36,638 nt of DNA from a virus (lineage: Duplodnaviria > Heunggongvirae > Uroviricota > Caudoviricetes). The stretch's first letter is position 1. The number at the start of each line of letters is the position of its first letter. The stretch is from IMG/VR virus record IMGVR_UViG_2541047702_000001. The stretch is one strand, 5' to 3'. A model generated the notes under the pieces. The model did no database searches. It was not told where the DNA came from and worked only from the letters and a program-made list of their open reading frames with translations. Below, one piece after another: positions 1 through 31,485 of the stretch. A program made the translations under genes and the position numbers.

Positions 1-17
1 AATCATTCCCACTCAAT
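1..17. repeat. attL core, 17-bp direct repeat AATCATTCCCACTCAAT
   Basis: Exact copy of 36622-36638. Reverse complement ATTGAGTGGGAATGATT reads I-E-W-E-stop, which I recall as the C-terminus of GMP synthase GuaA (from memory, unverified). Confidence 0.8.
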
Positions 18-2119: not shown

Positions 2120-2416
2120 TCAAATAGAGAAATAAACACAAAAACAAAAAACAACAGGAACAGCAAAATCCAACAGACTTCCCACATCCCACACGCGTGG
2201 ATCAAAACCTCCCCACCACGGCATGTTGATACGTTTCCCTTTCCCAAACTTTTCTATCCAGCGATATTCTGCCTGGGTGTGTTCACGCGCAATGAAGAAC
2301 GTACAACCGGCTATCGCACCGTAAGCCCAGTTTCCGGTAAAAATACCAACCAGTACCTGAGCCGCAAAAGCGCAAAGCGAGTGAAGAAATGGAGTGACAT
2401 CAATGCTCTTAATCAT
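2120..2416 (-). CDS. Small hydrophobic protein translationally coupled to tailspike (function unknown)
   Basis: ATG overlaps the tailspike stop (ATGA at 2413-2416); 98 aa with hydrophobic N- and C-terminal segments. A +1-frame ORF (1930-2247) continues beyond its stop across T5/T6 runs. Confidence 0.5.
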   Translation of the reverse strand: MIKSIDVTPFLHSLCAFAAQVLVGIFTGNWAYGAIAGCTFFIAREHTQAEYRWIEKFGKGKRINMPWWGGFDPRVWDVGSLLDFAVPVVFCFCVYFSI

Positions 2417-4602
2417 GAAACTTCCCCATTGGTTGAAAATATAGCTCCTCCAACGCCAAGTGTATTTCGTGTTGTGCTCAACCTCAGAGGGCTGGAGTCA
2501 GAATTAGAATATCCTGTAGCAGAAATAAAAGATCCTCCACTAATAGTCAACTGCGGAACATCGGCTATATCTGAATAAGTTCTGTCAGCAACAGTATTAT
2601 TTATAGCCACATATGATCCAAAAAAACTTCTTATTGTTTGGTTTTTAACTTTACTTCCTTCAATGGTTATCCTACTACCACAGTCGGCAATAAATCCTGA
2701 ATCTGCATCCAGCGTTGCATTCATAAAAGAAGCTTCAGATCTCTCTACATCAATCCATCTAATATCTTTTGTGGGATTTGCACCAAATACATGACAAATA
2801 TTAGAGTTAAACCTTACACCATCTTGGAGGTGCATTAATTTTTTTATATCTGTACCCCATAGCCTTGGAAAATTAACAGATGCTCCTGCATGGCAATCAA
2901 ATCCCAGCTCAGCCCCTGAGATATCTACAGCCTTTCCTGAAATAACAGCACCAGTGTCTGCATTAACGGCTGTTCCACAATTGCGCATATCATTACCAGC
3001 AACATCAACGCAACCCGCACCATCAATACGCACACCAAGTGCACATCCATAAAAACCTTTTTCAATATTTGGTTCAAGGACTTTACCACTTGTTTCTGCA
3101 TCACTTTCTTCAACGTCATGTCGTCTTGCATCAACATATGCTGTATGAATGCAGGTTAATCCACGATATGAGCAATGTATAGTTTTATGGTCGCGTATAT
3201 TAACATTTGAACCATCTCTTACATTCCATCCTATATAACAATAGCTTGCACTTGACCCCTGAAAATCTGCTTTAACATTATAAATACAATTAACTGACGC
3301 AACCGTACTCTCTGTGCACCGTTCAAACTTGCTTACAGGCATTGATGCCTTGACATTATTTACCAGTTGCAGGGAAGAGTATCTGCTATAAGAAAAATCA
3401 CATACGTAATACCCTTCTGGCATATATGCAGCAACACTTTCCTCATCAGGAGCACATCCGGTATGATATGCACTAATTTTTGCACCAAAACTACCATGAA
3501 TTCCAACGTAGAACTTTCGAGCACCTGAATACGGATAGAAATTAAGTTCAGCTTTTTGAGTTACAATAAATGCACAAACATCGCTATCATCTCTATTTTC
3601 TTCGATCTGAATAGCAAATACAGGACTTTTTGCTGCATCGCAAATGTAAAATAAATACTTGTATTCGTAATACGTTCTAACGATTTTAGTAAACAAACGA
3701 GTGTCAGAGAAAACCACTGAGTCTTCTGATGTTATTTTAATCCAAGACAAATCAACACCTGAACTGAATTCAATTTGATAGTTGATAATATGCCCGGTCT
3801 TAATTCTTATTTCGCAGAAAGCATTACCACCATCCCACATAGGTCTCATTGACTGGGCTGCAATGATTGCATCTTTGAGTGTAGGGTAATCACCCCATTC
3901 GCCAACAGTAATAACAAAAGTATAATATGAGTTAAAAACAGCGGCATTTTTGCCTTTGGATATCAACTCCTTAATCATAAAAATATTATCTTCGTAATCA
4001 CAAGGAGAAATTATATCCCTCATTTTGCTTTGAAATGTTCGTTGTCTTGCCCCGCTTCCTGACGGTATAAACCAACCAAAACCACCAACAACCCCGGCGA
4101 TTGCAGCATCGACATAATTACGCATTGAGCGATTATTTACAGCGTCCTGCTCAAGTGATGGATCTGCAAGGTTAGAAATTCTGTTTTGCTTTGCATCGTA
4201 ATATTTTGCAAGCAAAGATGGTTTCATCAATGCACGTCTGAACCACCCGAAACATCGCTGGATCAGCATCGTCAGGTAGTCAAATGCATCCTCATGAACT
4301 TCGGGGAAAAATTTTCCCTGATTGCGAAGATCAGTCTCCTGCACCACATCAAGCACACGCTCTATCGTAATTCGCCATCCAGCAGCAAGCGGCGACGGGA
4401 GAACCACTTCACCGCCACTATAAGTGCCCGCTCCAGTTACCTTATAACCGGTATCCAGAACCAATTCTGTTACGTTCCCGTTCAGGTCAGACACCTGAAC
4501 AACCAGGTCGGTTTTTTTGAAAATACGGAAGGTATACGGAAATGATGTCGTAACGCCGTTACCGGTGTATTCGTTGTGGTCAACTTCGGTTGAGACCGTC
4601 AT
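2413..4602 (-). CDS. Tailspike / receptor-binding protein with conserved N-terminal virion-attachment domain and C-terminal Cys/Gly-rich probable beta-helix domain
   Basis: 729 aa; N-terminus MTVSTEVDHNEYTGNGVTTSFPYTFRIF... matches the N-terminal domain I recall from epsilon15/phiV10-type tailspikes; GGAG Shine-Dalgarno 8 nt upstream of ATG 4602; C-terminal 500 aa rich in Gly, Cys, Asn, Ser. Confidence 0.7.
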   Translation of the reverse strand: MTVSTEVDHNEYTGNGVTTSFPYTFRIFKKTDLVVQVSDLNGNVTELVLDTGYKVTGAGTYSGGEVVLPSPLAAGWRITIERVLDVVQETDLRNQGKFFPEVHEDAFDYLTMLIQRCFGWFRRALMKPSLLAKYYDAKQNRISNLADPSLEQDAVNNRSMRNYVDAAIAGVVGGFGWFIPSGSGARQRTFQSKMRDIISPCDYEDNIFMIKELISKGKNAAVFNSYYTFVITVGEWGDYPTLKDAIIAAQSMRPMWDGGNAFCEIRIKTGHIINYQIEFSSGVDLSWIKITSEDSVVFSDTRLFTKIVRTYYEYKYLFYICDAAKSPVFAIQIEENRDDSDVCAFIVTQKAELNFYPYSGARKFYVGIHGSFGAKISAYHTGCAPDEESVAAYMPEGYYVCDFSYSRYSSLQLVNNVKASMPVSKFERCTESTVASVNCIYNVKADFQGSSASYCYIGWNVRDGSNVNIRDHKTIHCSYRGLTCIHTAYVDARRHDVEESDAETSGKVLEPNIEKGFYGCALGVRIDGAGCVDVAGNDMRNCGTAVNADTGAVISGKAVDISGAELGFDCHAGASVNFPRLWGTDIKKLMHLQDGVRFNSNICHVFGANPTKDIRWIDVERSEASFMNATLDADSGFIADCGSRITIEGSKVKNQTIRSFFGSYVAINNTVADRTYSDIADVPQLTISGGSFISATGYSNSDSSPLRLSTTRNTLGVGGAIFSTNGEVS

Positions 4603-4706
4603 GTTAAATCTCCAGATAGTCGCAGCACCCGTTGCGCCGCATATCTGGTTATTCTATTACCTTAAAAACCACATATGGATAGAAAGACTGTGAATACGAA
4701 TAGATA

Positions 4707-4721
4707 TTACCTTTCGGGTAA
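4707..4721. promoter_or_regulatory. Operator-like palindrome TTACC-TTTCG-GGTAA (exact)
   Basis: Exact match to the recurring motif; lies between divergent tailspike gene and the LexA-box promoter. Confidence 0.6.
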
Positions 4722-4760
4722 TTTGCAAAACGTGCTGGATAGCAAACAAATTATTTGATA

Positions 4761-4776
4761 CTGTATAAATATACAG
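4761..4776. promoter_or_regulatory. LexA (SOS) box CTGTATAAATATACAG overlapping a promoter for the plus-strand ORF 4798-5055
   Basis: Perfect CTGT-N8-ACAG with AT-rich spacer, flanked TA...TT (TACTGTATAAATATACAGTT); possible -35 TTGATA at 4755-4760; GGAGAAG ribosome-binding site at 4786-4792. Confidence 0.75.
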
Positions 4777-4797
4777 TTATTGCATGGAGAAGATAAG

Positions 4798-5055
4798 ATG
4801 CAGCAGTATCACTATCCACTGGAAGACGGATTTACCGAAAGGATTCACACGCCGGGAGGCGTCAGGTCACTGGTGGAGGGATCGCACTTGATGAAATTAC
4901 TCCGGGATCTCGATAAGGATGGATTTAATGTCGATGGCCCACTTGCCGAACTGACTGCACTGATTAACTATGTCACCAGCTCACAGATGTCTATGCAGGA
5001 TCTGCAAACACATCTCGACTATTGTGCCGAACAATTACGAAAACAAACCCGGTAA
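4798..5055 (+). CDS. Small LexA-regulated protein, candidate SOS-inducible antirepressor (function inferred from context only)
   Basis: 85 aa, ATG 4798 with ribosome-binding site; LexA box over its promoter; followed by a bidirectional terminator; opposite in orientation to all flanking genes. Confidence 0.5.
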   Translation: MQQYHYPLEDGFTERIHTPGGVRSLVEGSHLMKLLRDLDKDGFNVDGPLAELTALINYVTSSQMSMQDLQTHLDYCAEQLRKQTR

Positions 5056-5061
5056 ATTTAA

Positions 5062-5079
5062 AGGCCGCGAAAGCGGCCT
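5062..5079. terminator. Bidirectional intrinsic terminator hairpin AGGCCGC-GAAA-GCGGCCT between convergent genes
   Basis: 7-bp GC-rich stem; T-rich on the plus strand downstream (CCCTTTT) and on the minus strand (revcomp of 5041-5060 is T-rich). Confidence 0.6.
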
Positions 5080-5087
5080 GTGACATG

Positions 5088-5384
5088 TCACGTCCCTTTT
5101 CTGAATGATAGCCATTCGAAAAATGATGACATTCCACCGCAGACAATAGCAAAGATGATCCCACCAAAGAAGAGAAGGCCAGCCTGCCACCACTCCCACC
5201 GCCATACATCCACAGCGCCAACCATACCAACAATCGCTCCAACAAATGGAATATAGCTCACGATGAAAGCAATGGGGGCTGCAATTATCCAGTGCAATCC
5301 CCACCATGATTCAAGCCCAGCCATAATTGCTGCCAACTGAAAAAGACCAACGACGATATAAACAATGAATCCTATAGCTTGCAT
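5088..5384 (-). CDS. Small integral membrane protein (about 3 TM helices), function unknown; candidate superinfection-exclusion or host-surface-modification accessory protein
   Basis: 98 aa, strongly hydrophobic; AGGTGA ribosome-binding site before ATG 5384; last gene after the ejection-protein genes. Confidence 0.55.
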   Translation of the reverse strand: MQAIGFIVYIVVGLFQLAAIMAGLESWWGLHWIIAAPIAFIVSYIPFVGAIVGMVGAVDVWRWEWWQAGLLFFGGIIFAIVCGGMSSFFEWLSFRKGT

Positions 5385-5396
5385 GTAGTCACCTAT

Positions 5397-5570
5397 TTAC
5401 CCAGTAAAAATAAGAGGCCTCCCCTCAATAAGGCTTGCAACAAGAACTACTCCCTGCACAACAAAGATGAACCAGCAAATAGCTTGAGTCTGAGGGTTAA
5501 GAAAATATTTGTAGCGGTCAATAAATAACAATCCACCAGAAATTATCACACTCAAAATAATTAAAAACAC
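5397..5570 (-). CDS. Small hydrophobic protein (57 aa, 2 predicted TM), not in ORF track (below size cut-off)
   Basis: GTG at 5570 preceded by GGAAG 4 nt upstream, immediately after the stop of the 824-aa gene; translation MFLIILSVIISGGLLFIDRYKYFLNPQTQAICWFIFVVQGVVLVASLIEGRPLIFTG; stop 13 nt before next ATG. Confidence 0.4.
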   Translation of the reverse strand: MFLIILSVIISGGLLFIDRYKYFLNPQTQAICWFIFVVQGVVLVASLIEGRPLIFTG

Positions 5571-5579
5571 AACACTTCC

Positions 5580-8054
5580 TTATTGCGGAGTGACATCCTG
5601 AGGTCGCCACCAGTATGTCTGGTTAAACTCTTTCTTCGAACGTTGCTCCATTTTACGCAAATAGCCTGGTGAAAAATACTCCTGCATCTGATTAAAGATC
5701 ATGTGATCGAGAGCCGCCTTCAAGTACCAGAGATTCGCACCTGGCATCAAACCTTTCCCCAGCTTCACCAGATCACCACCAGTCTGCTCACTCTTCCCTT
5801 CCACAGCATTTAACGGTATGCCCTGAGCAATCTTCACTACGTCATCAACCAGACCAGCTACCGGGCCAAGCATCGACGCCAGCGCGCCGCTTCCGTACCT
5901 AGTGTGATCTGACAATAAAAAGTCACCATAAAGGCCAAGACCACCACCTTTCAGTAGAGCACCAAGCCAGAATTTTGCGGCATCTTCTCCTGTCATCTCT
6001 CGAGGATTACGACCAGACGCAAGGTCGTTAAGTTGTTGCGACAAAGCGCCAAGAATGGTCGTACTGGCAATAAACGTCGCAATATATGCCGCACGCCCAC
6101 CAGCAGACGGCATACCCATAGCGCGTGACCAGTGACGCATAACAACCGAGATAGGGAACGATTTAAACAGGAAAACACTTCTCGTTAATTCACCTTTCCA
6201 TGTTCCACGCTGAATACCAGAACCGGTTATCAGTTGCTCACGTGCTCCCGGTGTAATAACAGCCATATCAACTTCTTCAGTTACGGCACCGAGCAGTTTA
6301 CGCATTGCCTCAAATTTCACGCGTTCAGGCTCACCAAGATGTTTAACTGCTGAATCAGGGATACGCATAATGCTTTCCGGTGTCAGCATCGTATTATTAC
6401 CGTTCCCCCAGTCCTCCTGTTGCGCCAGCTTCCATACGCTCCAGTCTGTGTCAGTAATCCCTTTGCTTTTCAGGATACGAAAATCAGAGTCATCGAGGCT
6501 ACGAAGGTCTGGTGTTCGTGACACTACTTCTCCCAGGCTTCCCATCATGGTTACGCCATAGGCGCGCTTGTGCGCATCTGACCATGCTGTAAGCCCACTG
6601 GCACGCATTACCGCCGTTGCCGCCCAACGAGACACTGACGGCCCCATATTATCCATCGCCCAGCGGTTAACGCTGCCAAGTAGAGATTCCATCGCCAGAC
6701 CAGCGCGGCGCGCCCGCGCAAGTTCTGTACGGTTCGTTGGGTCCATAGCTTCAAGCTGGTTGCGGAATAACTGGTTCATTGGAAGGTTGGTAACCTTCGC
6801 AGACAGATACATGGTTCCAAGATCAGAGAACGATGACAGCAACGCGGATCCGAGTCTGCTGGCAACCAGCCAGTTGCGAATATTGTCAGACCATCGCGCG
6901 ATGTGCGGATTCGCTACAGGCTGTGTCTTTCCGGAAATAAAGTTGTACAGATTCTCTGTGTTGTTCGCCAGCCGCTCGACTTTACCGGTTTTACTCGGGT
7001 TAGCTGTTGCCGTTTCTGCCTTCACCTGATCAAGAAGAGAGCGGAAAACATGATCGGGGTTTGGGCCATATGTTTCCACCAGTGCAATATCTTTACTGAT
7101 ACCTTCCAGGTGACCGACCATGATTTCCCATAGAGAGCGATCGCCATAAAGTTGCTGATATTGCAGATAGGAATCTGCATCTTTGAAATGTATCTGTCGT
7201 GATGCATTACCCCGGTTAGCACGTGCGCCGGAAATTCGCATTCCGGTATCAGTAAGCTTATTCAGCCCACCAGTAGCGATCGTGTTATAAGCCTCTCCAA
7301 GAAATGCAGACAACTCGGCATCGTTCATCAGTTGTCCATCGGCTCGGGTATAATATTTGCGATCCAGCTTACCTATAACATCGCTAACCCACTTATCCTT
7401 TGATACCGCCCCAACCTTTTCCATAGAATGATGTTGAGGGAGCCCCCAGTTTTCGAGATAGCCAATGTCCCCACCAGCATCATTAAACCGGCGGCGCAGT
7501 AGCTCTGTCACTTCTCTCCACGCCTTAGCACCTTTTCTTGCTTTAGCATTGCCAGTATTTTGCCCTCGCATTTCATATACCAGGTCACGTACGCCCGCTT
7601 CATCTTCAAACAGACCAAAAAAGCGAGGATCAACTGCTTCGAATGCCTCCTGCAATTGACTCAATGCATAATCACGAGTGGCTTTTGTTCTGGATTCAAC
7701 AGAGAGGAAATTCGATTTACCGTCTGCATTAAAAGCAATAGTACGGTTAAGAGCGCCAAGTTTCCCATCAGCCCCTTGATAGCTATTGATAAATTTATCC
7801 AATCTCTGACGTGCGGCTATAGTGAGGGCCACACGACGTTTCTTTAATGCCGCTTCTCGCTGTAATTCTTCAGATGCCAATTGTGCTGCACGATATAGCC
7901 GCTCTGATTCGGAAAGTTGTCTCCACGACATCGGGTCATCACGAGCAATGGAGCGCATATTTCGATAAATGCGGTCTTCAATGTTCTGTATTTCTCGCGC
8001 CGTTAACGTGCGCTGCGCCGCCTGCTGGACCGCTTGTATACATTCCTGTCTCAT
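5580..8054 (-). CDS. Large internal virion / DNA-ejection protein (podovirus-type)
   Basis: 824 aa; one of three consecutive very large proteins between tail genes and tailspike; C-terminal region with hydrophobic/Gly-rich segments; no enzymatic motif recognised. Confidence 0.5.
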   Translation of the reverse strand: MRQECIQAVQQAAQRTLTAREIQNIEDRIYRNMRSIARDDPMSWRQLSESERLYRAAQLASEELQREAALKKRRVALTIAARQRLDKFINSYQGADGKLGALNRTIAFNADGKSNFLSVESRTKATRDYALSQLQEAFEAVDPRFFGLFEDEAGVRDLVYEMRGQNTGNAKARKGAKAWREVTELLRRRFNDAGGDIGYLENWGLPQHHSMEKVGAVSKDKWVSDVIGKLDRKYYTRADGQLMNDAELSAFLGEAYNTIATGGLNKLTDTGMRISGARANRGNASRQIHFKDADSYLQYQQLYGDRSLWEIMVGHLEGISKDIALVETYGPNPDHVFRSLLDQVKAETATANPSKTGKVERLANNTENLYNFISGKTQPVANPHIARWSDNIRNWLVASRLGSALLSSFSDLGTMYLSAKVTNLPMNQLFRNQLEAMDPTNRTELARARRAGLAMESLLGSVNRWAMDNMGPSVSRWAATAVMRASGLTAWSDAHKRAYGVTMMGSLGEVVSRTPDLRSLDDSDFRILKSKGITDTDWSVWKLAQQEDWGNGNNTMLTPESIMRIPDSAVKHLGEPERVKFEAMRKLLGAVTEEVDMAVITPGAREQLITGSGIQRGTWKGELTRSVFLFKSFPISVVMRHWSRAMGMPSAGGRAAYIATFIASTTILGALSQQLNDLASGRNPREMTGEDAAKFWLGALLKGGGLGLYGDFLLSDHTRYGSGALASMLGPVAGLVDDVVKIAQGIPLNAVEGKSEQTGGDLVKLGKGLMPGANLWYLKAALDHMIFNQMQEYFSPGYLRKMEQRSKKEFNQTYWWRPQDVTPQ

Positions 8055-8059
8055 TTAAT

Positions 8060-9862
8060 TTAACCTCTCAAGAAACACGCCACAGCGACATCAAACAGGC
8101 TGGAATCCTGTATTGCCTGCTCACTTTCCCTGTTCGCTTCATCCAGTACTTCACGCGCGCTGCGCGATTGTGGATTACCATCATCATCCAGCACGGTGAT
8201 TATCATGTCAGGTGATTCAAGCAGCGAGTCTTCAGCTATGCGCAGATCAATATCTCCTGCCTGATCCGCCATCATTTTTTGTTCTGCCTGTTGCAATATT
8301 TTATCAGGCTCAAAAGGAGCTACTTCGCCTGGCGTCCTGACCTCTGCTGTTTTATAGAATGAAACAGCCTGAGCATTAAGTTCACTTTCAGCCTGCTGTC
8401 TCCGTGCCAGTTCTGCTCGAGCTTCAAAAAACTGACCGCCAGGCTCATGCGGTGCCAACGCGTTACGGGAAAATTCCAGGCGTTCTTGTGCCTGCCGGAT
8501 TCGTTGGTCAATATCGCGAAGTCTGACCTGTTTATCTGATCGAGCACGAGACAAAGATTTACCGCTACCGGTTGGCTCTTCTGCAAGAATTTGTGCGCGC
8601 TGTTCAGTGAGATTTTCAATAATTCGTTGGCTATTAGCTATTTCAGACTGGTAAACCTGTCTATCGCCACGCGGCAAAAGCTGCGCGGCCTGTTCTTCAA
8701 GCAACCGATTTTCTATAGCGCGCGCCGTTACTCCATCATCTACAGATGACAGAGCCTCATTAACTGCCTGAGACAGCAGACTCTTGCGCCCAGGAATTTC
8801 ACTGAAAGATGCAGACTCAACAATGCTGGCAACGTCTACAGGTCTCCCCTGGCTAACATCAGACATAGCTTTTCGCAGAGCCTGAATGTGAGAATTGCGC
8901 GAAAGCACGTTGATCGGCACGCCGGGCGCAATATCAATTTCAGCATGATGAGCGGCATTCGCCGCCAGTGCAGCATCAACATCAACTGGTGAAAAATTTG
9001 GTGCGCTTGTAGACTCGCCGCGAGAGTTAATAAATCTGCCGACACCACCAAACGCCACCCCAAGAACAGCATCAATAGCAATTGCCTGTCGATCCAACAC
9101 ATCATACTGGTTAGCCATTTCGCTATAGCCACCATCACGAAGCGTTTTTGCAGTAAGCCCACGCTGTGCCATACCGAACGCAATATTTGTACCTGCGGCA
9201 TAGGCAATATCTGGCGTTGCACGTACTGCTGTTGCTGCGGCGCGTCGCACTGAACTTTCACCCGTCCGCGCAAGCTGAGCCGCCACACCTTCCGCCAGTG
9301 CACCACCAGCACGTAACCCGAGGCTCATAGGGATCAGTGTTCCGGCACCAGCAGTAATACCCTGCACTAATCCCGCTTCCTGCGCCGTCCTGAAATCAAC
9401 ACCCTGTGCTGTCAGCCGTTCAAACTCAGAAAAACCCTGTAGAGAAGTTACCGCCGCAGCACCTCCGACCGGACCACCGAGCGTTGTACCGACAACAGCC
9501 TGCCCGCCCATATCGAACAACCCATAAAGGACCTGCCCGGCGGTTCCGGTTGTCGCGGCATCAGGCGTCAGCCGCTTAACCTGCTGCTCTGCTAGTTTTC
9601 TCTGCTCAGCAATGTATGAAACTGAAGTGTCATTGATCGAGGTGTTTTCGTTAACAAACTGAGCAATCGGGGATACGATTTTATCCATCCCTGCCCATAG
9701 CAACTGATCTGGCTTTGCCACCAGCCCGGAGTACAAACCAGACAATGCCGCTCCTACAGCATTGTCGAAAAAACCAACATCGCTGTTAAAGCCAGCTGGA
9801 TTTGATGCTGCTTCGTCAAGCTGCTGATTCTGGTTTACTGGATTAAGGCCAAAGTAACTCAT
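8060..9862 (-). CDS. Internal virion / ejection protein
   Basis: 600 aa, Ala/Gly-rich N-terminal half and charged coiled-coil-like C-terminal half; start overlaps upstream gene stop. Confidence 0.45.
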   Translation of the reverse strand: MSYFGLNPVNQNQQLDEAASNPAGFNSDVGFFDNAVGAALSGLYSGLVAKPDQLLWAGMDKIVSPIAQFVNENTSINDTSVSYIAEQRKLAEQQVKRLTPDAATTGTAGQVLYGLFDMGGQAVVGTTLGGPVGGAAAVTSLQGFSEFERLTAQGVDFRTAQEAGLVQGITAGAGTLIPMSLGLRAGGALAEGVAAQLARTGESSVRRAAATAVRATPDIAYAAGTNIAFGMAQRGLTAKTLRDGGYSEMANQYDVLDRQAIAIDAVLGVAFGGVGRFINSRGESTSAPNFSPVDVDAALAANAAHHAEIDIAPGVPINVLSRNSHIQALRKAMSDVSQGRPVDVASIVESASFSEIPGRKSLLSQAVNEALSSVDDGVTARAIENRLLEEQAAQLLPRGDRQVYQSEIANSQRIIENLTEQRAQILAEEPTGSGKSLSRARSDKQVRLRDIDQRIRQAQERLEFSRNALAPHEPGGQFFEARAELARRQQAESELNAQAVSFYKTAEVRTPGEVAPFEPDKILQQAEQKMMADQAGDIDLRIAEDSLLESPDMIITVLDDDGNPQSRSAREVLDEANRESEQAIQDSSLFDVAVACFLRG

Positions 9863-17614: not shown

Positions 17615-17665
17615 CTTCTTTCTCCATTAGTGGGTCTGTTACGACCCACAGGTTAATAACAGGCG

Positions 17666-21558: not shown

Positions 21559-21637
21559 ATCAATGACTCCGTACGCAATTAAATTATTACCAATTTAACC
21601 ACATATGATTTATTTATCGTAGATAGTTGACATTTAA

Positions 21638-21652
21638 CGCACAAATTATTAC
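21638..21652. promoter_or_regulatory. Operator-like palindrome TTACC-TTTCA-GGTAA (exact), with TTGACA -35-like hexamer 17 bp upstream
   Basis: Exact motif; TTGACA at 21616-21621; lies in the intergenic region between portal-operon start and the tRNA unit. Confidence 0.55.
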
Positions 21653-21983: not shown

Positions 21984-22060
21984 GTGGCATTAGCTCAGTT
22001 GGACAGAGCAACCGCCTTCTAAGCGGTTGGTCGCAGGTTCGAATCCTGCATGCCACGCCA
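21984..22060 (+). tRNA. tRNA-Arg, anticodon UCU (reads AGA)
   Basis: Manual cloverleaf: acceptor GTGGCAT/ATGCCAC, D-stem GCTC/GAGC, anticodon stem ACCGC/GCGGT with loop CTTCTAA, T-stem GCAGG/CCTGC with loop TTCGAAT, discriminator G and encoded CCA; 77 nt. Confidence 0.85.
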
Positions 22061-22146: not shown

Positions 22147-22223
22147 CAGCAGGACGCCATTGCGATGACTTCATGCTGTAAACCCGTACAGCCACGGAAG
22201 GCATAACTCATTGCTTCCAGTTC

Positions 22224-24199: not shown

Positions 24200-24792
24200 T
24201 GATTACCATCCTGACGTTCTTTGAGTCGCTTCCTGGCTGCTGCTATGCGATCAGCAATTGTCACATTCACATTAACATCCAGGCGTTCTTTGAATGCGTT
24301 GACGTCGACGTGCTTACCAATCAGTTCGAGGTTCTTCACCTTGTCAGGCCATTTAATTTTTTTGAGGATTGTCTCTATCGAATCCTCGTTCATGTTCATG
24401 ATGGTCGATGACAGATCAAAGCCGCTAAGCGTAGTGCGCCAGATTTTCGGCCACTCGCGGATTGGCTTAAGGCTCCCATCGTCGTTGAGGATGTCGATCA
24501 CGTCCATCTGGTCGATCTCCACCAGGCGCATGAGAACGTAATCAGCACTGACGCGCATTCGTTTGTTGCGCTCCTCCATCAACTCGGCAATCCGTTTTTG
24601 AATGCGTTCATCGCGCATCATGACACTGGCTTTAACTGCCGCTGTATTTGGGGAGAATCCTGCATTAATCGCTGCCTGAGTCTGGTTTTCAGGCGTTTTG
24701 ATGTATGACTGGCAATAAGCCTCCTGCATTGCTGTGAGCGGCTTAAATTGCGTTGATTTGCGTTTATAGGTTTTAGGTTCAGCAGGCATCAT
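24196..24792 (-). CDS. Terminase small subunit
   Basis: ATGATG at 24792/24789 (ORF-track start 24870 is an upstream extension); basic N-terminus, overlaps terL start; first gene after a terminator. Confidence 0.55.
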   Translation of the reverse strand: MMPAEPKTYKRKSTQFKPLTAMQEAYCQSYIKTPENQTQAAINAGFSPNTAAVKASVMMRDERIQKRIAELMEERNKRMRVSADYVLMRLVEIDQMDVIDILNDDGSLKPIREWPKIWRTTLSGFDLSSTIMNMNEDSIETILKKIKWPDKVKNLELIGKHVDVNAFKERLDVNVNVTIADRIAAARKRLKERQDGNQ

Positions 24793-26246: not shown

Positions 26247-26978
26247 TCACTTTCCTTTGATGCGAATGCCAGCAAGCCAGTTTCTTATGCCGATATATTC
26301 AGCGTTCCTGAAACCGCTTTTTACATATATAAATGGCAAGCGAAGATTGTGACCATTGGCTGCTAGGTAGTCTTTACAACCCTGTTCGGTGAAACAGCAG
26401 GTAACGAATTCATCAATATCTTTCACAGCAACGCGCCGCCATTTTTCTGGTGGTTCCCGAAAGTTTTCATGAAGTAGTTCGAGACGACGACTTTGGAGTT
26501 TATTGGCTTCATTGCCATCTTCATCAACCCAGACAATCCGGTCATAGTCATAATCAGCATCAACAACAATTTCGCGCTTTTGATACACACAAAACATAGG
26601 GTCTGACGTTATTCGATTATCCTGTGTTCGAATATTTTCACCGATGATGCCAAACGAATCTGGTGCAGATTTTGTCTGCAACTCTGCTATGCGCTTACTT
26701 CCATCCGAGATAACACCTTCGTAATACTCGCGTTGCTCGTTGAGTTTTGATTTTGCTTCCTCAAGCTCAACGCGCAGCTTCCCTACCGTTAGCGCAATAT
26801 CTTCGTTCTCCTGGTCGCGGCGTTTGATGTATTGCTGGTTTCTTTCCCGTTCATCCAGTAGTGCCAGCACAATCGATGGTGTTACCAGCTCATGGAAAAG
26901 GTCCGCATCAAATCCCCAGTCGTCATGCATTGCCTGCTCTGCCGCCAGTCGCAGAGCCTGATAGTTAATCTTGCTCAC
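26247..26978 (-). CDS. Ead/Ea22-like family protein
   Basis: N-terminus MSKINYQALRLAAEQAMHDDWGFD resembles the conserved Ea22-like N-terminal region of lambdoid phages (recalled); coiled-coil middle. Confidence 0.45.
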   Translation of the reverse strand: MSKINYQALRLAAEQAMHDDWGFDADLFHELVTPSIVLALLDERERNQQYIKRRDQENEDIALTVGKLRVELEEAKSKLNEQREYYEGVISDGSKRIAELQTKSAPDSFGIIGENIRTQDNRITSDPMFCVYQKREIVVDADYDYDRIVWVDEDGNEANKLQSRRLELLHENFREPPEKWRRVAVKDIDEFVTCCFTEQGCKDYLAANGHNLRLPFIYVKSGFRNAEYIGIRNWLAGIRIKGK

Positions 26979-28308: not shown

Positions 28309-28385
28309 TTACCCCTTAGGTAATTAAAAACCACATAAGACATGAAATCAATAGACGTTAGAACATTTTATTACCCACTAGGTAA
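28309..28385. promoter_or_regulatory. Two exact operator-like palindromes (TTACC-CCTTA-GGTAA 28309-28323; TTACC-CACTA-GGTAA 28371-28385) 62 bp apart
   Basis: Both exact; located between P-like gene stop and nuclease gene start, the first only 4 bp from the ATG. Confidence 0.55.
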
Positions 28386-30281: not shown

Positions 30282-30292
30282 TTGGTTTTTTA

Positions 30293-30307
30293 TTACCTTT
30301 GAGGTAC
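30293..30307. promoter_or_regulatory. Operator-like site TTACC-TTTGA-GGTAC (1 mismatch) downstream of the cro terminator
   Basis: Read in sequence; sits between terminator 30310-30341 and the CII-position gene. Confidence 0.4.
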
Positions 30308-30628: not shown

Positions 30629-30691
30629 TTCACCCATAAGGTAACAAAAATCAAGGATAGTTACCTATGGGGTGCATTTACCTGTTGGGTA
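30629..30691. promoter_or_regulatory. Tripartite operator region between divergent cro-like and repressor genes: TCACC-CATAA-GGTAA (30629-30643), TTACC-TATGG-GGTGC (30660-30674), TTACC-TGTTG-GGTAA (30677-30691, exact)
   Basis: Three sites of the same palindromic family in a 147-bp AT-rich intergenic region, analogous to OR1-3. Confidence 0.6.
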
Positions 30692-30747
30692 ATATTGCTT
30701 TAAATTGAATCATCTACTGATTCATATATGAGGCGATTTTCCAGAAA

Positions 30748-31332
30748 ATGAAAAGTATCCAGGACGTCCGCAGGCAAAATCTCAACGACTTGATCGACCG
30801 TGAATTCAATGGTGTTCAGACGCGGATGGCAGAAAAACTTGGAACTCAGGCAAATCTGGTAAACCGCTGGGCTCTTGGCAAGAAGGTTATCGGCGACCAG
30901 GTTGCGCGAAAAATTGAAGCTGCCGCCAATAAACCCCGTAACTGGCTTGATATCGATCGCTCGCTTTCTCAGGAAGGTTTTCAGCCTGTCGGCCCAAGCG
31001 ACATTGGTCAGCTGGCGGCTCACAACCTGGAACGCTGGATGAGCGAAAGCCGCGACCTTTCAACACAGGGAAAACTTCACCGCGCATCCGGCGTCGCCCA
31101 GGTGACAATCAGCCGCCTGTTAAACAATGAGGTCAGCGTTTCCATTTCCACCCTGGAGAATGTTGCATCCGCATTCGGGCGTCACGGCTATGAATTACTG
31201 ATTCACCCGCACGACCCTGCGACCATCAACTATGACCGCTCGCGCTACGCATTGTTACCCGAAACCGAGAAAGCAAAGATCGAAAGTTACATTGAATTTG
31301 TCATCAACCAGAACGAAAAAAACAAACAATAA
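30748..31332 (+). CDS. Prophage repressor (CI-position) with two tandem XRE-type HTH domains and no recognisable S24 peptidase domain
   Basis: 194 aa; two HTH-like segments (about residues 20-70 and 95-150); C-terminus lacks Ser/Lys peptidase motifs; followed by terminator and a second operator cluster; weak ribosome-binding site (possibly leaderless-like). Confidence 0.6.
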   Translation: MKSIQDVRRQNLNDLIDREFNGVQTRMAEKLGTQANLVNRWALGKKVIGDQVARKIEAAANKPRNWLDIDRSLSQEGFQPVGPSDIGQLAAHNLERWMSESRDLSTQGKLHRASGVAQVTISRLLNNEVSVSISTLENVASAFGRHGYELLIHPHDPATINYDRSRYALLPETEKAKIESYIEFVINQNEKNKQ

Positions 31333-31378: not shown

Positions 31379-31389
31379 TGCCTGCGCAA

Positions 31390-31466
31390 TTACCTTAAGG
31401 GTAATTTTTTTAACTCATATCTATTGACACCAAACCAAATACGCATAATTATTACCTCAACGGTAA
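31390..31466. promoter_or_regulatory. Early-left promoter/operator region: exact operators TTACC-TTAAG-GGTAA (31390-31404) and TTACC-TCAAC-GGTAA (31452-31466), with TTGACA -35 at 31424-31429
   Basis: The second operator overlaps the predicted -10 (TAATTAT about 31446-31452). Confidence 0.6.
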
Positions 31467-31485
31467 CAGACCGAGGTAACAAGTT

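Follow-up and report, generated by a model that had tools for sequence, protein, structure and literature searches.

The 36,638-nucleotide (nt) stretch of viral DNA considered here (the window, whose coordinates count from its first letter) carries a small gene, ant, that lies in reverse orientation between the late virion genes and the tailspike gene, and that is preceded by a predicted binding site for the host repressor LexA (an SOS box) and followed by a hairpin terminator (Table 1). The same 17-bp repeat, AATCATTCCCACTCAAT, is found at both ends of the window (1–17 and 36622–36638), and this repeat is the attachment (att) core given for ZX5, phiV10, and epsilon15, with integration at the 3′ end of guaA (PMC9782041). 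Because the att core stands at both ends, the window is, as read from its sequence, exactly one complete, att-bounded integrated prophage of the epsilon15-like (Uetakevirus) type from E. coli. Its DNA is approximately 97% identical to that of the E. coli Uetakeviruses phiv142-3, PAS61, ZX5, TL-2011b, and phiV10, and its genes are ordered as the lysis cassette, tailspike, ant, the virion genes, tRNA-Arg, the terminase genes, the early genes, a cro-like gene and the repressor gene rep, the recombination genes, and int.

An initial annotation of this DNA had proposed that the SOS box drives a candidate antirepressor. The comparisons described below bear this out, and the locus is very probably the induction trigger of the prophage, a LexA/Ant/Rep antirepression switch of the type known from the Salmonella phage SPC32H.

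The ant gene and its SOS box

The 85-residue open reading frame (ORF) ant is, by homology, an orthologue of SPC32H Ant and not an orphan. The two proteins are 88% identical over residues 2–84 in a tblastn comparison, which finds homologues of the window ORF in 35 phage records, and the gene is labelled 'ant: anti-repressor protein' in both SPC32H and SPC32N (SPC32H_020). A phmmer search of solved structures matches the same residues to chain E of PDB entry 5D50, 'Anti-repressor protein' (E = 4e-47), and the ORF belongs over its full length to phrog_450 in PHROGs (E = 9e-48); the sole other PHROG link is a weaker match of residues 27–75 to the C-terminus (positions 177–225) of the 'anti-repressor' family phrog_1760 (E = 4.5e-7). 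No model was matched by ant in Pfam or NCBIfam, and because neither database holds one, the initial annotation saw no recognisable family and RefSeq labels the gene 'hypothetical protein'; the former statement is true of Pfam and NCBIfam and false for PHROGs and the PDB. Among 5.8 billion proteins, 136 homologues of ant were found, most without an organism name, and those with a name are nearly all from Enterobacterales; several are called 'Anti-repressor protein' by UniRef. E. coli phage ZX5 has an ORF 100% identical to the window ant that carries no annotation, and 535 of the 5,426 complete E. coli genomes (~10%) contain the ant locus, some of them in up to four copies.

The reverse orientation of ant between the virion genes and tailspike, as the initial annotation had described it, is shared with SPC32H/SPC32N, phiV10, two Klebsiella phages, and Enterobacter BUCT554. 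None of these annotated phage loci has ant apart from tailspike (the ten bacterial loci introduced below lie outside this check), and no second Ant-like copy was found in the window.

The SOS box, TACTGTATAAATATACAGTT, agrees with the E. coli LexA consensus TACTGTATATATATACAGTA at 18 of 20 positions and lies 20 nt upstream of the ant ORF, within a region that reads TTTGATACTGTATAAATATACAGTTATTGCATGGAGAAGATAAGATG. No other site in the window comes within three mismatches of the consensus, none arose in 100 dinucleotide-preserving shuffles, and no further box matching at least 14 of 20 positions was found elsewhere in the window. The core, which the initial annotation had correctly recognised as a gammaproteobacterial SOS box, encloses an A/T-rich spacer (CTGT-ATAAATAT-ACAG) that lies over the predicted ant promoter; a CTGT-N8-ACAG core with an A/T-rich spacer over a promoter is what characterises a member of the gammaproteobacterial LexA regulon, as ant appears to be. 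Three more CTGT-N8-ACAG matches (17636–17651, 22176–22191, and 26382–26397) bring the total in the window to four, against 0.44 expected. They have G+C-rich spacers and match the LexA consensus at fewer than 14 of 20 positions, and LexA probably does not bind them; the match at 22176 falls in an intergenic stretch past the tRNA, where a terminator-like hairpin stands on either side of it.

The position of the box is conserved among relatives. The comparison set comprised 15 distinct upstream sequences from at least 10 genera, namely five phages and ten species-representative bacterial loci (two from Citrobacter and one each from 'Ca. Erwinia dacicola', Superficieibacter, Pseudocitrobacter, Scandinavium, Kluyvera, Pseudescherichia, Klebsiella, and Buttiauxella). 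In all 15, the SOS box core lies 35–41 nt before the ant ATG, and the best 20-mers match the consensus at 14–18 of 20 positions. Two flavours of the box occur, TACTGT-N8-ACAG and ATATGT-N8-ACAG. The Klebsiella, Kluyvera, Superficieibacter, and Pseudescherichia lineages carry ATGT in place of CTGT as the left arm, together with one inserted nucleotide (TATATGT); prophages of these lineages would have a weaker box and possibly leakier ant expression.

In SPC32H, the whole genome contains exactly one SOS box, at ant. The separately deposited genomes of SPC32H and SPC32N differ by a single base across the aligned ant–tailspike intergenic region, and this base lies in the right arm of the box, where a C to A change converts ACAG to AAAG (TATACAGT in SPC32H, TATAAAGT in SPC32N). 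In the work of Kim and Ryu (2013), this box mutation reportedly leads to constitutive Ant synthesis and a lytic phage.

The ant–tailspike intergenic region of approximately 195 bp is poorly conserved among the 15 sequences outside a few islands, which comprise the ribosome-binding site (RBS) and start of tailspike, TTCTATTACC..AACC..ATATGAAT (4652–4682), ATTACC-N5-GGTAA (4706–4722), CTGGA (4735–4739), and TGnTA(C)TGT-N8-ATACAG. The last two of these islands are the source of the proposed ant promoter (P_ant), in which TGGATA would serve as the −35 element and TG-a-TACTGT as the extended −10 element, separated by a 17-nt spacer. This assignment is an inference from conservation, and it places the SOS box over the predicted promoter through the conserved TGnTACTGT, in agreement with the overlap stated in the initial annotation. 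Predicted transcription starts lie at about 4770–4772 (plus strand) for ant and near 4644 (minus strand) for tailspike. The alternative hexamers TTGCAA (4723–4728), −10 candidates inside the box, and a downstream TATTGC were rejected, as they are not conserved among relatives.

Downstream of ant, the hairpin at 5062–5079 has a 7-bp G+C stem and a GAAA loop, and folds at approximately −18 kcal/mol. On the minus strand, it stands 9 nt past the stop codon of the gene at 5088–5384 and is directly followed by the T-run TTTAAATTT, and the scanner called a terminator on this strand only; on the plus strand, a second small palindrome, GTGACATGTCAC, comes next, and about 17 nt pass before the U-rich run. 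The hairpin is, by these features, a canonical terminator for the converging minus-strand late transcript, predicted to shield ant from antisense read-through, and it may serve as a non-canonical stop, without a U-tract, for the ant mRNA. Of the bidirectional terminator seen in the initial annotation, the hairpin and its minus-strand T-run stand, but the plus strand has no canonical T-run. In SPC32H, the stem of the hairpin is conserved and the loop is different.

Table 1. Coordinates of the features discussed in the text
Feature	Positions	Strand	Basis
ant, 85-aa antirepressor, SPC32H Ant orthologue (ATG 4798, TAA 5055)	4798–5055	+	88% identity, 5D50_E, phrog_450
RBS GGAG, 8 nt ahead of ant ATG	4786–4789	+	sequence, 15-sequence alignment
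SOS (LexA) box TACTGTATAAATATACAGTT, core CTGT-N8-ACAG CTGTATAAATATACAG at 4761–4776	4759–4778		unique in window, conserved in relatives
Proposed extended −10 of P_ant, TG-a-TACTGT, overlapping left arm of SOS box	4756–4764	+	TGnTA..TGT columns invariant in 15-sequence alignment
Conserved CTGGATAG, with TGGATA (4736–4741) as proposed −35 of P_ant	4735–4742	+	CTGGA (near-)invariant in 15 sequences, flanks diverge
G+C hairpin terminator AGGCCGC-GAAA-GCGGCCT, ending converging late transcript of gene 5088–5384	5062–5079	−	
rep, immunity repressor, predicted Ant target; two HTH domains, no S24 peptidase domain	30748–31332	+	5D50_A, 5D4Z_A, Pfam
Phage operator palindrome ATTACCTTTCGGGTAAT = ATTACC-N5-GGTAAT, Pal1 of tailspike-side promoter module	4706–4722		enrichment; kept in 14 of 15 relatives
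Tailspike-side element: half-site ATTACC (4656–4661) and AACCACATATGGAT	4652–4682	−	phylogenetic footprint, fixed spacing to Pal1
Three operator palindromes between rep and cro-like gene (30629, 30660, 30677; last two abut)	30629–30693		SPC32H triplet 34389/34406/34436
Operator pair 62 bp apart (31389/31451) around TTGACA promoter downstream of rep (P_L-like)	31389–31467	+	motif scan
Tailspike/tail-fibre gene, divergent from ant	2413–4602	−	phrog_5662, E = 0
Small membrane protein, 98 aa, phrog_3075	5088–5384	−	flanks ant
Large virion proteins	5580–8054, 8060–9862	−	beyond membrane protein gene

The partner repressor and the predicted induction switch

The predicted target of Ant is Rep, the repressor that the initial annotation had already named as its partner. 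Rep matches chain A of 5D50, 'Repressor' (E = 4e-42), and its C-terminal half matches the fragment in chain A of 5D4Z (E = 4e-20). A Pfam search of Rep returned only HTH_3 and a YdaS-like helix-turn-helix (HTH) domain, and Peptidase_S24 was not found. Since Pfam shows HTH domains only and no Peptidase_S24, Rep, judged by its domain content, cannot belong to the lambda cI type of repressors, which cleave themselves under RecA stimulation. Homologues of Ant and of Rep are found in essentially the same phage records (35 and 37, respectively), with the same genus counts. The window Rep is 100% identical to ZX5 ORF21 and to the phiV10 repressor, and overexpression of ZX5 ORF21 abolishes lytic-gene transcription (PMC9782041).

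The literature on SPC32H describes how LexA cleavage permits the synthesis of Ant, which inhibits the repressor. The SPC32H Rep protein binds DNA as a tetramer, this tetramer is broken when an Ant tetramer binds a pair of Rep dimers, and the C-terminal domain of Rep (PDB 5D4Z) mediates both tetramerisation and Ant binding. By homology, a similar sequence of events can be proposed for the E. coli prophage. In the lysogen, host LexA would occupy the SOS box, covering the extended −10 element and the likely start site, and would keep ant off, and Rep, without a LexA-like autocleavage domain, could not itself sense DNA damage. DNA damage would lead to RecA-stimulated self-cleavage of LexA and would free the ant promoter. 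The Ant protein then made would, as a tetramer like that of SPC32H, bind the C-terminal tetramerisation domain of Rep and split the DNA-binding Rep tetramer into dimers, which would leave the ATTACC-N5-GGTAAT operators. The release of Rep would then allow the early and late lytic promoters to fire.

Because Ant is 88% identical to its SPC32H counterpart, Rep is homologous, the box is conserved, and the synteny is identical, the same mechanism as in SPC32H is by far the most likely one. Ant homology, the SOS box, the type of Rep, and synteny all place the locus within the SPC32H Ant/Rep/LexA system at the sequence level, and nothing in the sequence contradicts this reading. The anatomy of the locus, the relationship of Ant and Rep to their SPC32H counterparts, the conserved box, and the missing S24 domain of Rep are direct observations; from these, LexA binding, SOS inducibility, and contact between Ant and Rep would follow in this prophage by homology. 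Two points weigh against the proposed switch. Ant–Rep binding here is only an extrapolation, because Rep is 42% identical to SPC32H Rep, and P_ant, with a match at approximately 7 of 12 hexamer positions, was not picked up by a scan for consensus promoters.

The ORF might instead encode an SOS-induced toxin or a cell-division inhibitor (SulA-, DicB-, or Kil-like, or a small membrane toxin) that does not act on the repressor, as the initial annotation had offered by way of alternative. A small, LexA-controlled, phage-borne ORF with no Pfam hit would suit such a role; however, this ORF is 88% identical to SPC32H Ant, for which the structure of the repressor complex is known, no toxin or division-inhibitor family was matched in Pfam, NCBIfam, or PHROGs, and the only PHROG link beyond its own family is to the 'anti-repressor' family phrog_1760. 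The probability of this alternative is close to negligible, and it has been dropped. It is also highly improbable that the SOS box is a product of chance or a relic, with ant constitutive or under another signal in this prophage. One observation in its favour is that ZX5 lysogens, which carry identical Ant and Rep proteins, show high spontaneous induction (PMC9782041). Against this stand the shuffled sequences, none of which produced a match, and the position of the box, which is kept across genera amid divergent DNA. The loss of one box base in SPC32N, alongside a lifestyle that is reportedly altered, points in the same direction.

The SPC32H and window systems are unevenly alike, with Ant 88% identical, Rep only 42% identical, and the operator half-sites the same. 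Such an imbalance hints at a possible action of a single type of Ant on Reps that have diverged, which would allow the cross-induction of co-resident prophages.

The operator network and the probable tailspike-side promoter

The palindrome upstream of P_ant, referred to as Pal1, belongs to a family of sites that is strongly enriched in the window, where 14 sites match ATTACC-N5-GGTAAT with at most two mismatches against 0.98 expected; exact copies also occur at 28370 and 31389. Besides the sites around rep, operator sites are found as a pair at 28370/28308 that is similar to the one downstream of rep, at 24791/24809 before the terminase genes, at 21648 before the structural operon, and at 36473 before int. 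At the promoters that flank rep, the downstream operator site overlaps the −10 element, and the palindrome is therefore accepted as a phage operator; it is probably the operator of Rep itself, as predicted from these positions. In SPC32H, the same ATTACC/GGTAAT half-sites occur at equivalent places, including upstream of the lysis cassette. The initial annotation had placed an exact phage operator at 4707–4721, about 35 bp upstream of the box; the operator is genuine, but it extends over 4706–4722, of which 4707–4721 is the inner part, and its distance to the box core downstream is 38 nt.

The network includes 17-bp sites at 4706, 21648, 24791, 24809, 28308, 28370, 30629, 30660, 30677, 31389, 31451, and 36473, and they occupy almost every intergenic region that bears a promoter. 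Operator pairs are often 62 bp apart and bracket a TTGAC/T −35 element, or abut at 17–18 bp, and the same pattern is seen in SPC32H. This distribution suggests that the repressor directly controls the early, late, lysis, and int units. The palindrome at 21648 overlaps the −10 element of a promoter-like site, TTGACA-17-TACCTT, approximately 350 nt upstream of tRNA-Arg(TCT) (21984–22060), which lies on the plus strand, opposite in direction to the flanking late genes. The stretch of approximately 300 nt between this promoter-like site and the tRNA has no gene annotated in PAS61 and no Rfam match, the tRNA being the sole match in an Rfam scan of the window.

The anatomy around Pal1 ties the palindrome to the tailspike gene. 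Because the hairpin at 5062–5079 terminates the upstream late transcript, tailspike needs a promoter of its own, and the element at 4652–4682 is the probable core of this promoter, as judged from its conservation. In 14 of the 15 relatives, Pal1 and the tailspike-side half-site are spaced by 51 nt, whereas the distances from Pal1 to CTGG (26–29 nt) and to the SOS box (52–56 nt) vary. The same module, consisting of Pal1, approximately 30 nt, ATATGTGGT, approximately 5 nt, and GGTAAT, also stands before late units that have no ant gene, namely, in both the window prophage and SPC32H, the operon whose first gene is the small one upstream of portal, and, in SPC32H, the lysis cassette. The palindrome is therefore most likely a part of the tailspike promoter. 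Another motif that recurs, AACCACAT(A/T)(T/A)G (opposite strand, ATGTGGTT), is found at 4667–4677, ~21600–21610, ~28330–28340, and ~30283–30293. In several promoter modules, 5–6 nt separate it from an operator or half-site, and it might belong to the promoter spacer or be bound by another factor.

The initial annotation had also suggested that LexA and the phage repressor jointly control ant, with the palindrome at 4706–4722 acting as a Rep operator that co-regulates P_ant, for instance through positive feedback once Ant has removed Rep. The palindrome is a genuine member of an operator family that overlaps the −10 elements of the rep-flanking promoters, it ends just 13 nt upstream of the proposed −35 element of P_ant, and it is conserved in 14 of the 15 relatives. 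However, its centre lies near −57, upstream of the core promoter and without overlap, and its spacing is locked to the tailspike side and not to the −35 element or the SOS box. The recurrence of the module ahead of late units without ant speaks against a role specific to P_ant, ant must fire while Rep is still bound, and only a base of the LexA box separates SPC32N from SPC32H in the aligned intergenic region. Furthermore, Rep dimers are described as binding single sites weakly. A lone palindrome would, for this reason, be a poor repressing site unless paired, in particular if the Rep tetramer needs paired sites, and the only partner half-site for Pal1 lies on the tailspike side. Dual control is unsupported by this anatomy and appears unlikely. 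A broader version, in which Rep directly silences every prophage unit (early, late, lysis, and int), mostly through paired sites 62 or 50 bp apart that bracket promoters, and also tunes P_ant, is likewise doubtful; it would place the late operons under the repressor itself, with no dedicated late activator. Were it true, the removal of Rep by Ant would feed back on ant and convert a graded SOS signal into an all-or-none commitment.

Related antirepressors and implications for E. coli prophages

The LexA-gated switch proposed here is closest to that of SPC32H. Both phages belong to the genus Uetakevirus, and both have the order virion genes, reverse ant, and tailspike, with the SOS box at the same distance from the ant ATG, the same upstream palindrome, a similar terminator hairpin, a homologous Rep with two HTH domains and no autocleavage domain, and ATTACC/GGTAAT operator half-sites. 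They differ in the host, which is E. coli for the window prophage, in the divergence of Rep, in the spacer of the box (ATAAATAT in the window and ATGTTTAT in SPC32H), and in the neighbouring membrane protein (98 and 46 residues, respectively). The genetics of the SPC32H system were published by Kim and Ryu in 2013 (J Virol 87:11775), and its structure by Kim et al. in 2016 (PNAS 113:E2480; PDB 5D50 and 5D4Z).

Tum of coliphage 186 and GfoA/GfhA of the Gifsy prophages follow the same logic, in which a repressor that cannot be cleaved is put out of action by a small protein from a LexA-repressed gene (Lemire et al. 2011, PMC3121763), but no such family is found among the Pfam, NCBIfam, and PHROG hits of ant, and the phage type and genomic position differ. 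The window Ant would thus work like the Tum and Gifsy antirepressors without being one of them. The SPC32H study reportedly calls its own Ant structurally distinct from the Tum and Gifsy antirepressors. The likeness to the immI region of P22 is one of position only; in this short-tailed temperate phage, an antirepressor gene also lies among the late virion genes beside tailspike (between the ejection-protein genes and gene 9), whereas P22 Ant is large, unrelated, and controlled by Mnt and Arc, not LexA. P22 ant mutants are reported to be still SOS-inducible, because C2 is cleavable.

A different 'anti-repressor', which carries a Bro-N domain (phiV10 p23; ZX5 ORF4, PMC9782041), lies a few hundred bases from ant and has an Ant-like C-terminal part (phrog_1760; tblastn E = 4.5e-10 in phiV10). 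It is larger than Ant and was not found in the window, and no SOS box was found upstream of the phiV10 Bro-N gene. In phiV10, this 'anti-immunity' gene lies beside ant at 4769–5448, with its Ant-like C-terminal part split over two reading frames (p23/p22); the window has the gene for the 98-residue membrane protein instead. The 2022 study of ZX5 tested the Bro-N protein ORF4 as the anti-repressor and left the small Ant 'hypothetical' (PMC9782041).

The LexA/Ant/Rep system is already known from its Salmonella orthologue, with its mechanism and structure published, and the E. coli locus opens no new question. Its value lies partly in annotation, as ant is called a 'hypothetical protein' in approximately 10% of complete E. 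coli genomes, has no NCBIfam or Pfam model, and was overlooked in the ZX5 lysogeny-regulator study of 2022, although that phage carries a gene identical to the window ant (PMC9782041). For the biology of the host, the analogy with SPC32H implies that a family of E. coli prophages would be induced through a LexA-gated antirepressor and not through cleavage of the repressor. This helps to predict inducibility for a family carried by 535 of the 5,426 complete E. coli genomes, and co-resident prophages that share a near-identical Ant might possibly cross-induce one another.

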